Shown here piece after piece: positions 12,180 through 61,692 of a stretch of DNA of 64,000 nt; the stretch's first letter is position 1; the number at the start of each line of letters is the position of its first letter. The position numbers and the translations under genes were made by a program. Location of the stretch: the sequence record MK373774.1, one strand, 5' to 3'. A model generated the notes under the pieces. The model was not told the DNA's origin. It worked only from the letters and a program-made list of their open reading frames with translations, and searched no databases. This DNA comes from Escherichia phage vB_EcoM_WFL6982.

Positions 12180-12788
12180 TCAGTAACTGACAATAGACAG
12201 ATTCCAGATTGTATAACGTCCATCTTGAATAATAGAATCTACACGCAGTGTAGTCCCTATAGGGAGCATAAATTCACATTCGTCAGATATAAGTCTAGCA
12301 TTAGACCGTCTTGTCGCTTCAGGGAAAGCTCCATTGAACTCACAAGATGGAGCAGCCAGAATCATGTTAAGCATATGTTCACGGAAGTTGAAAGCAAATG
12401 GTGCATCTTTGATGCAGAACATATTAAATGTTCCGTAAAAATTATATGAAGCAAAGTTACGTGCTACACCGAACACTGGGCTGAAGCTCATTACTCTGTC
12501 AAATTTAATAATACTACCAATGCCTTTATCATCGAGTGTGGCCATAGTTTTCTTAGAGATTCCACGATACATTGTCTCAGGAACAGAAGACGTCCAATTT
12601 CTACGAACGATTGAACTTAACTCCTGTTGAATACAGTCTGGCTTGTTTTCCATACACTGCCACAGTACACTTTGTTCAATGTCGCTGAATTGACTATCAA
12701 TTTCGTACTGCAATACATCTTGATATTCGGGGTTTTGAGCACGACGAACCATTTCTTCAATTTCACACTCGTTATACGGCATAAACAT
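12180..12788 (-). CDS. modA: ADP-ribosyltransferase ModA-like
   Basis: 202 aa; paralog of adjacent ORF; YRG ... S-T ... E pattern typical of R-S-E ADP-ribosyltransferases; T4 modA/modB position. Confidence 0.6.
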   Translation of the reverse strand: MFMPYNECEIEEMVRRAQNPEYQDVLQYEIDSQFSDIEQSVLWQCMENKPDCIQQELSSIVRRNWTSSVPETMYRGISKKTMATLDDKGIGSIIKFDRVMSFSPVFGVARNFASYNFYGTFNMFCIKDAPFAFNFREHMLNMILAAPSCEFNGAFPEATRRSNARLISDECEFMLPIGTTLRVDSIIQDGRYTIWNLSIVSY

Positions 12789-12845: not shown

Positions 12846-13427
12846 CTAAAAATTCAACATTTTCAAATGAATGATTTTGTATAATCGAGATAAAGGGTCA
12901 TATTCTAAGTCTTCAATTTCCACAATCTCAAATCTAGAGATACCTGAGACCATGTACTCTTGTTCAGATTCAATCATATCTAGGACGTCAACACGCGTTT
13001 CTTCCATAACATGCTTAGGGTTCTTTCCGGCGAGTACAATGTTAATCATGTTTTGGTAGTAATCAAAAATGAATGGAGCATTCCTGAGACTAAGAATAGT
13101 GTACGTCTGATATTCCCATCTCCCAGAGAATTGACGAGCTGTACTGAAATCAGTTGTGAACGATGTTACTCGTCCAGGAGACCAATGGCATCCAACAGAA
13201 AGAAGTGAAAGACGTTCTACTTCTTCTGGAGTTACACCACGGTAGAGTTCTACTGGTACTGTAGAAGTCATATGCTTACGAACAAGATGGTCTAACTCAT
13301 AGTGGAAATCCGGGTCTTCCTTAGAATCGGTGCAAGCCCAGAGAATGTTTTGTTCTTGGCGGGTGAATTTGCTATCAATCAGATTTGTTAGGTATTCACG
13401 TTCTTGAAGTTCAGATTGACATGTCAT
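12846..13427 (-). CDS. modB: ADP-ribosyltransferase ModB-like
   Basis: 193 aa; paralogous to 12180..12788 (LYRG, NAPFxF blocks). Confidence 0.6.
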   Translation of the reverse strand: MTCQSELQEREYLTNLIDSKFTRQEQNILWACTDSKEDPDFHYELDHLVRKHMTSTVPVELYRGVTPEEVERLSLLSVGCHWSPGRVTSFTTDFSTARQFSGRWEYQTYTILSLRNAPFIFDYYQNMINIVLAGKNPKHVMEETRVDVLDMIESEQEYMVSGISRFEIVEIEDLEYDPLSRLYKIIHLKMLNF

Positions 13428-17830: not shown

Positions 17831-18490
17831 TTAACCTCGATTCATAAATGCATTAAATATTTGGTCATCAACAGAAATTTCTAATTCGACTTCAATTGCT
17901 TCAGCCTTTTCTTCAGGTGGTAATTCGTATCCACACACTACAATTTTTTCATCGATATCAAAATATACAGAAGCAATACTATTAATGTTATTTTCAGTTA
18001 AGTCCAAATCAACACCAACATCTTTTTGGCCTACACTTAGAGGATAACTAATACGGGTTATTTTATTATCTTTAACAAAGAGTCCACCAACATACTCTGT
18101 ACTACGTTTGAAGTTTACACGTTTCCGAATTGAAAGATATGATACATCTTTACCGTGAGCTCGGCTCATAGGACATAATGAATAGCTAGAATAAGAGATG
18201 TCAAATCCTACACCTTCAATATGAGCCAACGTGTCACGATTAAACCAATTATAATCATATGCCAAATCCATTATATTGTAATATGTGAAAGGCACAGGAT
18301 TAACATCATATGTTGTACCTTTAAAATCTGCCCAGGCAACGATTTCGTTATCTTTAACAATTACAAAAATTACACCAATATGGTATCCGTTATTATTTTC
18401 ATTAGGCGTTATATTATAACATTGTGCATTAGGAAATTTACCATATTTAAACGGCGCGTTTTTGTGCATATAATAAATCATATTATTCAC
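17831..18490 (-). CDS. hypothetical protein
   Basis: 219-aa ORF. Confidence 0.55.
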   Translation of the reverse strand: MNNMIYYMHKNAPFKYGKFPNAQCYNITPNENNNGYHIGVIFVIVKDNEIVAWADFKGTTYDVNPVPFTYYNIMDLAYDYNWFNRDTLAHIEGVGFDISYSSYSLCPMSRAHGKDVSYLSIRKRVNFKRSTEYVGGLFVKDNKITRISYPLSVGQKDVGVDLDLTENNINSIASVYFDIDEKIVVCGYELPPEEKAEAIEVELEISVDDQIFNAFMNRG

Positions 18491-57913: not shown

Positions 57914-58495
57914 TTATAACAACCCTGTCAAATCATTCCAATGCTTCCGGCATAATGACACGTATCTATCGGTATCACCAATTTCAATTTGACTGCCATC
58001 TGTAATTGGAAGTCCGTCTTCCGTGACTCTAGCTACCATTGTGGCCTTTTTACCACAATGACAGACGCCTTTAAGTTCAACAAGCTTATCGGCAATAGCC
58101 ATTAATGCTTGAGAACCTTCAAATAGATTACCTTTAAAATCTGTTCGTAGTCCATATGCCATTACCGGCACATTGTATACGTCAACAATACGACTAAGTT
58201 GATACACCTTTTCAGTAGTTAAGAACTGAGCTTCGTCAACAAATACGCAGTGAATATCCTTTTGTGCTGCAGCCCATTTATAAAATTCAAAGATATCCAT
58301 GTCTTTTGTAATTATATTGGCGTCCTGACGAATACCAATACGAGAGACTATTTCACCTTTTGAATCGCGAGTATCAATAGCCGGTTTAAGAACTAATACA
58401 CCCATGCCACGTTCTTTATAGTTATGTGCGGCAGTAAGTAATGAAGCAGACTTACCAGCGTTCATAGCGGCATATGTAAAAATTAAACTAGCCAT
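57914..58495 (-). CDS. tk: thymidine kinase
   Basis: 193 aa; P-loop YAAMNAGKS, C-terminal Zn site CxCG. Confidence 0.92.
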   Translation of the reverse strand: MASLIFTYAAMNAGKSASLLTAAHNYKERGMGVLVLKPAIDTRDSKGEIVSRIGIRQDANIITKDMDIFEFYKWAAAQKDIHCVFVDEAQFLTTEKVYQLSRIVDVYNVPVMAYGLRTDFKGNLFEGSQALMAIADKLVELKGVCHCGKKATMVARVTEDGLPITDGSQIEIGDTDRYVSLCRKHWNDLTGLL

Positions 58496-58504
58496 AAGAG
58501 TCCT

Positions 58505-58687
58505 TTATAGTGAATTCACGTAGTCAATGAGTTCTTGTTCTTTCCTGTCAAATGATTCCATCAATGCGTGATATTCTTCGTCCGTCAAAGGAGCATATTC
58601 ATCATACGCATTGGTGGCTGATTGTTCATCCAATAGGTCATGGATAAGTTCGAATAGTTTAGCTTTCTCTTCTTTAGTCAATTTCAT
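58505..58687 (-). CDS. hypothetical small acidic protein
   Basis: 60-aa ORF. Confidence 0.45.
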   Translation of the reverse strand: MKLTKEEKAKLFELIHDLLDEQSATNAYDEYAPLTDEEYHALMESFDRKEQELIDYVNSL

Positions 58688-59178
58688 TTAGGTTCCCAAT
58701 CAACAATCACAATTTCTAGTTTAGTGGAATATGTATCTAAAATCTCTTCGATGACGTCCCAGTTTCCACCGCCAATACCTGCACCAATTCTTGGCATATA
58801 AATTACAGGCTTTGTTATCTTATTCTTTCCGAATTCATTTAATTCTATTATACAATTCATTAAAGCAGAGTACTCAAAATTAGGTCCCGGCTCAAACTGT
58901 GTATAAAGATTAAAGCAATAAGCTTTATGGGTCTTAAAATATTTTTCATAAACCGAATAAGTCCCGAGTTTAGACTTGTCTCCGAATTCGGTTTGAAGTT
59001 TATCGGCTTCTAAAATTTTTGGATAAGCCTTTGCTAATTGGCCTGCTACACCGGCGCCCATTGTATGAAAACAATTACACCCATGAGCAATATTATTACC
59101 TTTAGAAAACAGGGCGACAATATCGCCCTTGATATAGTTTTTAATCACTTGCTGCAAGTCCTCTATTATAAGAGTCAA
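58684..59178 (-). CDS. macro-domain protein (ADP-ribose binding / processing)
   Basis: 164 aa; GDIV..N..MGAGVAGQL and IGAGIGGG blocks match macro-domain diphosphate-binding loops. Confidence 0.65.
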   Translation of the reverse strand: MTLIIEDLQQVIKNYIKGDIVALFSKGNNIAHGCNCFHTMGAGVAGQLAKAYPKILEADKLQTEFGDKSKLGTYSVYEKYFKTHKAYCFNLYTQFEPGPNFEYSALMNCIIELNEFGKNKITKPVIYMPRIGAGIGGGNWDVIEEILDTYSTKLEIVIVDWEPK

Positions 59179-59488
59179 CTAGACGGTCCACCATAGAATT
59201 GCATGCTGCCTTATCTTTAGGTTCCGCCACCGAGCATTCTAATATTTGCCATTTTTTATAGTATCTTTTAATTAAGGTAGACGCCTTGAACCTACTAGAC
59301 GCCCCGTCTTTTTCTCCGTCTTTATACGCGTATAACAATTTTTGTGAAAAATCTACTTTACACTCTTGACTTTTACCACAATAATCAGACGCCGTTCTGT
59401 TTGTATACTCCGTTACATCAGTATATGTAGTATTAGCAAGAGCGTTAAATGAAACCAAGCTAACTATTAAAGCCAACATTTTGGTCAT
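59141..59488 (-). CDS. secreted/periplasmic hypothetical protein
   Basis: 115 aa; signal peptide MTKMLALIVSLVSFNALA. Confidence 0.45.
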   Translation of the reverse strand: MTKMLALIVSLVSFNALANTTYTDVTEYTNRTASDYCGKSQECKVDFSQKLLYAYKDGEKDGASSRFKASTLIKRYYKKWQILECSVAEPKDKAACNSMVDRLVDSYNRGLAASD

Positions 59489-60027
59489 TCTTTTATTTCC
59501 AGTAGTTTATTTGATTTAAGGTAATTAGCCTTTTCTAGGACTTCAGAAGCATATTTACTTCCGGCACTTGTCTTCCATCCCGCATTATATGAGGATATAG
59601 CTTTTCTTATATCCCCGTTATGTATATTTAACCAATAAGAAAATTCGATATAAGCCCATCTGGCTGAATTAGACCGCTTAGATAGCATTTTCTTAATTTG
59701 GGCATCAGTCATATTATAACCAAGCTGGTTAATTCTTGCCCTCATTGTCGGTAGATAATTTTGGAACATTCCATACGCATGGTGACCTTTCTTATCTTTA
59801 AGATTAATACCGGCAGATGATTCCTGCCATAGTATTGCGGCCATTATGTATCCAAGTCCTTTCTTATGCATATTTTCATGCGTTTTAAATTTTCCATCCT
59901 TAGAAAACTGTTCCCCAAACTGATAAGCATAATTCAAGTTATCGAGTTGGACATTACTAAAAGTATGCTCGGAGCTATGTGCTGATAATGAAAGAGCAAA
60001 TAGACCAGCGAGTAGTGCTTTTCTCAT
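59485..60027 (-). CDS. lytic transglycosylase (SLT) domain protein with signal peptide
   Basis: 180 aa; signal peptide; QESS catalytic-Glu context and AYGMFQ, SxYNAG blocks. Confidence 0.6.
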   Translation of the reverse strand: MRKALLAGLFALSLSAHSSEHTFSNVQLDNLNYAYQFGEQFSKDGKFKTHENMHKKGLGYIMAAILWQESSAGINLKDKKGHHAYGMFQNYLPTMRARINQLGYNMTDAQIKKMLSKRSNSARWAYIEFSYWLNIHNGDIRKAISSYNAGWKTSAGSKYASEVLEKANYLKSNKLLEIKE

Positions 60028-60035
60028 GTTTACCT

Positions 60036-60494
60036 CTAGATTTTAATCACTGCTTTAGAAGCTTTTCCTGGTAGTCGTTTATTGTTAATAATAGCCATTC
60101 TGCATTGAAGAGTCTTCATTTTGAATGCCGGATTTTCGCGACAAACTGTAAGTCCTAACCAAAGATTTCCGTCAGTTATTTCTAAACGGCCCGGGCGATA
60201 TTCGACACCTTCGACAAAATCTTCATCAACATCTGGACGTGCCGGCATTGATAAAAATTCTGCAACTTCTTTAACATGATTTTTTACTTTATGAAATAAT
60301 TCAAAAACGTAATTCTCATCTATTTCTCTCTGGATGGCACGATCTAAGAGATGTTGAGAATACTTGATATGAAAGCCTGGTAGTCCAAGAGACTTTGCAG
60401 CATCTTTTATACCGGCATTTATTTTGCGGAACTCCGTTTCAAAGATTCGACGGAGTTTATTACGGCGGATAAAAACGTCTGAATTGATAGTCAT
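60036..60494 (-). CDS. regB: RegB site-specific endoribonuclease
   Basis: 152 aa; position after vs/tk and partial recall of the T4 RegB N-terminus (MTIN..VFIRRNKLRR). Confidence 0.6.
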   Translation of the reverse strand: MTINSDVFIRRNKLRRIFETEFRKINAGIKDAAKSLGLPGFHIKYSQHLLDRAIQREIDENYVFELFHKVKNHVKEVAEFLSMPARPDVDEDFVEGVEYRPGRLEITDGNLWLGLTVCRENPAFKMKTLQCRMAIINNKRLPGKASKAVIKI

Positions 60495-61116: not shown

Positions 61117-61330
61117 AAGGAATTTCCTCATCGGTGGCAAGGTCATATTCGACCAATTGGATAGGCTCATTAATACCATATCCACGTACAGTGATATCAG
61201 TTGCCGGATAGTTTCCAGTAATATCACCCATTCTAAATGCTTCAATGAATGATTGCTCGCCTGAGCAACTAAACCAGGCGGCAAAACATTTTAAAACATC
61301 TTCAGACCCTTCTATAATCAATTTAGCCAT
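61106..61330 (-). CDS. hypothetical acidic protein
   Basis: 74-aa ORF. Confidence 0.4.
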   Translation of the reverse strand: MAKLIIEGSEDVLKCFAAWFSCSGEQSFIEAFRMGDITGNYPATDITVRGYGINEPIQLVEYDLATDEEIPYVD

Positions 61331-61692
61331 TATAGACTCTCAGTAAAGGTACGAGCGATAACGTCACGCTGCTGTCCCGGAGTCAGAGAGTTAAAGCGAA
61401 CTGCATAACCGGATACACGGATGGTCAACTGCGGATATTTTTCTGGATGCTTAACTGCATCTTCCAGAGTTTCACGACGCAGAACATTAACGTTCAGGTG
61501 TTGACCACCTTCAATTTTAACTTTAGGTTGATGTTCAATTTCAATTTCACGGGCATTCAAACCGTAGAAAATTTCCGGGTCTACAATAGCGTCTTCTTTA
61601 AAAGTCTTAGAGACAATAATCCGGGCTTGAGTACCGTCTTCAAAATAAATAGTGCCTTTATGTGCACCTTCAAGAATTTGATATGCTTTCAT
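61330..61692 (-). CDS. autonomous glycyl radical cofactor (GrcA/YfiD-like)
   Basis: 120 aa; C-terminal about 60 aa nearly identical to E. coli GrcA as recalled, including glycyl radical motif RVSGYAV. Confidence 0.9.

Follow-up and report, generated by a model that had tools for sequence, protein, structure and literature searches.

Macrodomain Proteins That Act on ADP-Ribosylated DNA

Several macrodomain proteins are reported to remove ADP-ribose from DNA. SCO6735 of Streptomyces coelicolor takes thymidine-linked ADP-ribose off DNA and is inactive as the Q85A mutant; this Gln is proposed to orient the distal ribose together with a water molecule, and DarG and TARG1 also reverse the thymidine ADP-ribose adduct on DNA (PMC9411070). 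Among phage proteins, AdfM of PhiKZ frees single-stranded DNA (ssDNA) of the ADP-ribose made by DarT2 (PMC13309987). Phage T4 without adfA and adfN was still DarTG2-resistant in an earlier study, which predicted a further anti-DarTG2 factor. When a T4 transposon library was passed over a DarTG2 host, tk.4 was the single significant match (HIDEN-SEQ), and a clean tk.4 knockout sensitised T4 to DarTG2; the gene was named adfM, and it was proposed, without biochemistry, that Tk.4 strips ADP-ribose from DNA (bioRxiv 10.1101/2025.11.20.689424). The Tk.4 protein has been detected in T2-infected cells. Here we describe the macro-domain gene found in a 64,000-nucleotide stretch of Escherichia phage vB_EcoM_WFL6982 (MK373774.1), hereafter called the window, and compare it with these systems.

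Orthology of the Macro Gene to T4 tk.4

The single-domain protein encoded by the macro gene (Table 1) was identical to T4 Tk.4 (NP_049723) at 129 of 153 residues (84%) over its full length, with an expectation value (E) of 1e-103. The two proteins are of equal length, their genes lie at the equal position between vs and tk, and the family-invariant residues are all common to both. The gene is, in a Mosigvirus, orthologous to T4 tk.4 (adfM, for anti-DarT factor, macrodomain) and encodes a stand-alone macrodomain of the early region. The two alleles differ in the start codon, which is ATG in T4 and GTG in the window, and in the motif GIGKGNW of T4 Tk.4, which reads GIGGGNW in the window protein, Gly being the family consensus.

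A 2.3-kb stretch around the macro gene was 100% identical, at equal coordinates, to Escherichia phage vB_EcoM_WFK (MK373775.1; Straboviridae, Tevenvirinae, Mosigvirus), and the annotations cited in this text are those of the vB_EcoM_WFK (WFK) record. The GenBank annotation there lists WFK_00108 (QBQ77133.1), "macro domain protein", at 58684..59148. The gene was therefore already annotated, and its T4 ortholog had already been named together with a defence-specific phenotype, so that the finding is correct but known.

Macro Fold and Active Site

The protein matched the Pfam Macro family (PF01661) with an E of 1.9e-6 and 28.2 bits, the gathering cutoff being 22, over profile positions 2-117 of 118, and it matched PHROG 335 with an E of 1.2e-66; such agreement greatly exceeds what chance would give. 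From an alignment of 65 sequences, AlphaFold2 gave a model with a mean predicted local distance difference test score (pLDDT) of 95.8 and a predicted template modelling score (pTM) of 0.91. The protein has the three-layer alpha/beta fold of macrodomains, with a mixed sheet at its centre. The top Foldseek matches in the PDB were TARG1 (3e-10) and Poa1p (1e-9); the DarG macrodomains of T. aquaticus and M. tuberculosis, BT1257, and SCO6735 were matched as well. By sequence, the closest solved relatives were BT1257 (1.9e-10), Poa1p (1.2e-8), SCO6735 (7e-5), and TARG1 and DarG (both about 1e-3). The protein belongs to the TARG1/DarG/Poa1p/SCO6735 ("ALC1-like") class. A first-pass annotation, made from the letters of the window, had called it a macro-domain protein on the strength of the blocks KGDIVALFSKGNNIAHGCNCFHTMGAGVAGQ and PRIGAGIGGGNW; both blocks were found in the translation, and the Pfam score, the model, and the fold and sequence matches confirmed the assignment. 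The 64-kb window yielded no further gene of the macro family.

Fifteen positions were invariant in the 65-member alignment, namely, G23, N25, C26, G33, A35, D49, G62, N80, Y82, Q84, P119, I121, G122, G124, and W130. N25 aligned with N23 of PhiKZ AdfM (gp104), whose replacement by Ala lowers activity (PMC13309987). Gln84 shared its alignment column with TARG1 Lys84 and with the Gln of BT1257 (NLYTQ versus NMIGQ), and a structure-based alignment places DarG Lys80 and SCO6735 Gln85 at the same site (PMC9411070). Gly126 was found at the position of the catalytic Asp125 of TARG1. The K84 and D125 numbering of TARG1 holds in the sequence that was aligned. Because Gln84 and Gly126 replace these residues, the Lys/Asp chemistry of TARG1 or the Lys of DarG would be unusable in the window protein. 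ADP-ribose is predicted to be bound through the glycine-rich loops and Asn25.

Proposed Role against DarTG2 and Alternative Explanations

The best explanation for the macro gene, to which we assign a probability of roughly 0.8, is that its product, as an AdfM ortholog, would be a DNA ADP-ribosylglycohydrolase acting as an orphan antitoxin against DarT2. DarT2, the toxin of DarTG2, attaches ADP-ribose to thymidine of ssDNA and stops replication. In the proposed mechanism, the DarT2 of a DarTG2-carrying host would do this to phage ssDNA. The two glycine-rich loops of the phage protein would then hold the ADP-ribose, and hydrolysis of the thymidine-ribose bond would restore replicable DNA, which is the sense in which the protein would be an "orphan antitoxin". 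The chemistry would probably be SCO6735-like, with Gln84, not Lys, placing the distal ribose and the water molecule. We infer enzymatic removal of ADP-ribose for both the window protein and T4 Tk.4; the former is taken to be a DNA ADP-ribosylglycohydrolase because DarG, TARG1, SCO6735, and PhiKZ AdfM reverse that adduct. The genetics of the 84%-identical T4 ortholog support the suggestion of the first-pass annotation that the protein could act against ADP-ribose-based defence of the host (bioRxiv 10.1101/2025.11.20.689424). Phage T5 served as the DarTG2-sensitive control phage in both studies, and no member of the Tk.4 family was found in T5 at E <= 10, either by tblastn or by hmmsearch of the family profile against all six-frame open reading frames (ORFs).

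Several points weigh against this role. For T4 Tk.4 the support consists of genetics published as a preprint, and the absence from T5 is one data point. The catalytic Lys of DarG and TARG1 and Asp125 of TARG1 are absent from the window protein, as are Lys34 of SCO6735 (Ala32 here) and the longer Lys-rich mobile loop of that protein. Since these catalytic or DNA-positioning residues are missing, the transfer of mechanism from DarG/TARG1 or SCO6735 is inexact.

It is also conceivable, but unlikely, that DarT2 is neutralised mainly by stoichiometric binding instead of ADP-ribosyl-DNA hydrolysis, or by both. In vitro, DarT is inhibited through interaction with catalytically dead SCO6735 (Q85A), which has the strongest effect, and likewise with dead DarG (K80A) and TARG1 (K84A) (PMC9411070). 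AdfA and AdfB, the other anti-DarT factors known from phages, appear to be toxin-binding. However, the phage protein is a macrodomain alone and does not carry the C-terminal DarT-binding domain of DarG. Moreover, N25, Q84, and the glycine loops were invariant across the 65 sequences and 80 bacterial relatives, and this strict conservation of active-site residues argues that catalysis is under selection.

A small-molecule hydrolase, that is, an ADP-ribose-1''-phosphate (Appr1p) phosphatase akin to Poa1p of yeast or an O-acetyl-ADP-ribose deacetylase, is quite improbable in our judgement. Similarity to Poa1p was detected by phmmer (E 1.2e-8), T4 RefSeq, PHROG 335, and older annotations say phosphatase or "A1pp motif", and macrodomains are often promiscuous in vitro. 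Poa1p residues were compared at the sites targeted in its mutant crystal structures (His23, Ser30, and Phe152): His23 was matched by the nearly invariant His22, whereas the equivalent of Ser30, Thr29, was variable in the family. No source of Appr1p is known in a T4-type infection, and, to our knowledge, T4 RNA repair by Pnkp/Rnl1 makes none. Furthermore, the sole phenotype found for tk.4 is DarTG2-specific (bioRxiv 10.1101/2025.11.20.689424).

The first-pass annotation had also suggested that the protein could tune the phage's own ADP-ribosylation. As it had stated, the window carries ModA- and ModB-like genes: two tandem ADP-ribosyltransferase genes matched PHROG 832 (Table 1), both labelled hypothetical protein in the WFK record. 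SCO6735 and TARG1, in addition, act on ADP-ribosylated proteins (PMC9411070). Nevertheless, a reversal or tuning of Alt/ModA/ModB protein ADP-ribosylation is very unlikely. The macro gene lies about 45 kb from modA/modB and shows no genomic linkage to them, and, with family distribution as the point compared, the family also occurs in Felixounavirus, Pseudomonas, and Vibrio phages, which are far from the T4-like phages. Alt, ModA, and ModB modify arginine, whereas macrodomains of the TARG1/DarG class cleave Glu/Asp esters or thymidine linkages and not Arg N-glycosides; removal of ADP-ribose from Arg is performed by ARH/DraG-type enzymes. Tuning is thus chemically unlikely, because the Mod enzymes make Arg-linked ADP-ribose. 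No tk.4 phenotype has been reported on hosts without DarTG2 (bioRxiv 10.1101/2025.11.20.689424). Given the chemistry, the distance, and the lack of a supporting phenotype, this part of the suggestion finds no support.

Degradation of ADP-ribose-derived immune signals, for example the cyclic ADP-ribose (cADPR) isomers of Thoeris or His-ADPR, has a negligible likelihood: macro domains of TIR-containing defence systems are predicted to act on cADPR, and phages are reported to encode enzymes that break down such signals, but Thoeris-type signal degradation found no support for this protein.

As a separate observation on T5 (NC_005859; 6447-8094), this region encodes the Sir2-like protein T5.102. 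The neighbouring T5.105 is likewise labelled Sir2, and its sequence opens with a DxDGVL motif that looks HAD-phosphatase-like.

Start Codon, Gene Neighbourhood, and Family Distribution

The macro-domain ORF spans 58684..59178 on the minus strand and would encode 164 amino acids (aa) if counted from a TTG. These limits had been given for the gene; the ORF exists, but the end coordinate is very probably wrong, as the true start is almost certainly the GTG at 59148 (154 aa) rather than the TTG at 59178. All 64 aligned homologs start at the position equivalent to "MI.." of the 154-aa protein. T4 tk.4 starts at the aligned equivalent of this GTG in an ATGA start/stop overlap with vs, and the window counterpart of ATGA is GTGATTAA, which overlaps the vs stop. 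A Shine-Dalgarno-like AGAGGA (Table 1) also speaks for the GTG. The TTG start was ruled out by the GenBank annotation, the homolog alignment, and the start position of T4 tk.4. The overlap of the start with the vs stop codon suggests translational coupling of the macro gene to vs.

Table 1: Positions of the macro gene, its sequence elements, and other genes of the window.
Feature	Coordinates	Strand	Remarks
tk.4/adfM ortholog, single-domain macrodomain protein	58684..59148	minus	154 aa, GTG start, stop codon included
GTG start codon	59146-59148	minus	overlap with vs stop codon 59141-59143
Shine-Dalgarno-like AGAGGA	59159..59164	minus	10 nucleotides (nt) upstream of GTG start; read from sequence
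10-codon N-terminal extension from TTG	59149..59178	minus	rejected; inside end of vs, outside macro gene
First ADP-ribose-binding loop (predicted), residues 22-36, HGCNCFHTMGAGVAG	59041..59085	minus	invariant G23, N25, C26, G33, A35
End of central strand, residues 80-84, NLYTQ	58897..58911	minus	invariant Gln84
Second glycine-rich (diphosphate-binding) loop, residues 119-130, PRIGAGIGGGNW	58759..58794	minus	from alignment
regB	60036-60494	minus	first in transcription order of the locus
vs.1, SLT-like gene	59485-60027	minus	after regB
vs	59141-59488	minus	directly before macro gene
DUF7438 ORF, 60 aa	58505..58687	minus	between macro gene and tk
tk	57914-58495	minus	after DUF7438 ORF
Two tandem ModA/ModB-like ADP-ribosyltransferase genes	12180..12788, 12846..13427	minus	PHROG 832 "RNA polymerase ADP-ribosylase", E ~1e-37

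The genes around the macro gene all lie on the minus strand, as in the T4 early region, and the order regB > vs.1 > vs > tk.4 > tk.2-like > tk is common to the window and T4. The first-pass annotation had placed the macro gene immediately downstream of tk. This placement did not hold: because transcription runs right to left, the macro gene is upstream of tk, and the 60-aa ORF intervenes. This ORF matched Pfam DUF7438 (E 1.7e-16) and PHROG 653 and was 49% identical to T4 Tk.2. T4 has tk.1, tk.2, and tk.3 between tk.4 and tk, whereas the window has only the tk.2-like ORF; tk.1 and tk.3 are missing from the window at the tk locus. The DUF7438 ORF also showed a weak local match to Tk.4 residues 80-99 (NAYDEYAPLTDEEYHALMES versus NLYTQF.PGPNFEYSALMNC, E 0.003-0.005) and a non-significant match to the Pfam Acb2/Tad1 hairpin domain (E 0.19), both of which are probably due to chance. 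Elsewhere in the neighbourhood, a 120-aa ORF (61330-61692, minus strand) is the ortholog of T4 vs.6; it is labelled hypothetical in WFK, and the T4 RefSeq label of vs.6 is autonomous glycyl radical cofactor (GrcA-like).

A terminator-like hairpin, AGGGCGAT-ATT-GTCGCCCT followed by GTTTTCTAAA, was observed at 59111-59129 on the minus strand, with a T-rich tail reaching to about 59101. Its stability is about -13 kcal/mol, and it falls inside the macro gene at codons 7-13, 12 nt past the vs stop. The hairpin is identical in T4 and T4_ev240 and absent from the orthologs of Citrobacter phage Moon and Klebsiella phage F48. It sits in a 26-nt run identical to T4, the longest such run in the gene being 28 nt at a nucleotide identity of 80%. 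A regulatory role was dropped because the hairpin is absent in Moon and F48 and a 26-nt run is not exceptional for this gene. The tk.4 mRNA of T2 has been reported to pair with the host small RNA ArcZ (RIL-seq).

Of 50,697 phage records, about 2800 contained members of the Tk.4 family; they come from T4-like, Felixounavirus-like, Ackermannviridae-like (phage Cba120), Pseudomonas, Vibrio, and Acinetobacter phages. Existing labels among these relatives are "macro domain protein", "Poa1p-like", "ADP-ribose binding module", and "phosphatase". The 80 nearest bacterial relatives were 35-45% identical and stand-alone, and NxYTQ was present in 78 of them; most were 150-190 aa long and a few reached up to 269 aa, with lengths taken from the earliest possible start. 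No DarT2 was found within 4 kb of these 80 relatives (best E 0.8) by a single-query tblastn search, which has limited sensitivity. An origin of the nearest cellular relatives from DarTG operons was rejected, as their loci are stand-alone with no DarT2 nearby, the latter by that weak single-query search.

Two records labelled T4 carry altered tk.4 alleles. In T4_ev240 (LR597657.1; 401-880), tk.4 encodes a protein 59% identical to that of the window, compared with 84% for reference T4. Its first ~14 codons are T4-like in nucleotides, suggesting a recombinant, mosaic allele. In OL964745.1 ("Mutant Escherichia phage T4 clone T4_7t1"; 401-860), frameshifts split tk.4 into two small "macro domain-containing" ORFs; this broken copy fits dispensability on laboratory hosts without DarTG2, sequencing error being the alternative.

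Significance of the Family

AdfM is part of a layered anti-DarT set of T-even phages (AdfA, AdfN, and AdfM) directed against DNA ADP-ribosylating toxin-antitoxin defences. An intact copy in a therapeutic T4-like phage predicts growth on DarTG2-carrying E. coli. The wider interest is biochemical and concerns the cleavage of thymidine-ADP-ribose by a macrodomain without the catalytic Lys of DarG and TARG1, together with its substrate range. With regard to AdfA, a 216-aa ORF of the window (17831-18481, minus strand) lies two genes upstream of the primase gene and belongs to PHROG 3781, of unknown function. Its position fits that of T4 61.2 (AdfA, anti-DarTG1 factor), for which it is a candidate.

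It is possible, but doubtful, that the Tk.4-type AdfM family and its stand-alone bacterial relatives form a third kind of DNA ADP-ribosylglycohydrolase with a mechanism of its own, possibly also with a wider substrate range. Such enzymes may be Lys-independent like SCO6735 (Gln84), with a short loop of the TARG1/DarG type and without the DNA-clamping lysines of SCO6735, and they may act on thymidine-linked DNA adducts as well as ester-linked protein adducts. If true, AdfM of this third kind would shield phages from more ADP-ribosylating defences than DarTG2 alone.

Comparison with Known Systems

Poa1p shares the fold class of the window protein; it is an Appr1p phosphatase of tRNA-splicing metabolism, a function without a phage counterpart. 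Human TARG1/OARD1 is of the same fold class, and its loop is of equal length, with 8 residues between Gln84 and Tyr93 in the window protein; in contrast, the Lys84/Asp125 dyad of TARG1 is replaced by Gln84/Gly126.

DarG2 (T. aquaticus, 5M31/5M3E; M. tuberculosis, 5M3I; Thermosipho, 7OMU) has the catalytic Lys80 where the window protein has Gln. DarG also has a C-terminal DarT-binding domain and an adjacent darT, whereas the 154-aa window protein is without both. The only NCBIfam and PADLOC matches of the window protein were to DarG, in its macro portion: NCBIfam NF048014 (DarG) gave 31.8 bits against an equivalog cutoff of 250 bits, covering profile positions 4-148 of 338. Single-sequence tblastn, which is of limited sensitivity, gave no DarT2-like sequence for the window (best E 0.55). 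DarG proper was excluded by the score, the architecture, the absent catalytic Lys, and the lack of darT linkage.

PhiKZ gp104, also called AdfM, is likewise a stand-alone phage macrodomain that counters DarTG2, and the conserved Asn is common to both proteins (PMC13309987). However, gp104 is of another lineage: the BLAST match was local, covering 23 residues (E 6e-4), and gp104 retains the DarG-type Lys (FPTKDNW) and enters the phage nucleus. Orthology to PhiKZ AdfM was excluded, as the match is confined to those 23 residues; the common name was coined independently. Judged by their sequences, the two proteins named AdfM were recruited from separate branches of one class and are analogous.

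SCO6735 (PDB 5E3B) and Bacteroides BT1257 (2FG1/2AFC) are also stand-alone, single-domain proteins in which Gln replaces the catalytic Lys. The loop after this Gln has 14 residues in BT1257, and the SCO6735 subclass has a Lys-rich mobile loop 5-6 residues longer, with the DNA-binding Lys89 and Lys93/94, whereas the window loop reads FEPGPNFE and contains no Lys. The DNA-positioning Lys34 of SCO6735 corresponds to Ala32. The window protein thus has the Gln of the SCO6735/BT1257 subclass and lacks its long Lys-bearing loop and Lys34. As read from the alignments, the Tk.4 family combines an invariant Gln84, followed by a short loop, with the lack of a DarT-binding domain, and this description is what the present report adds to the known systems.
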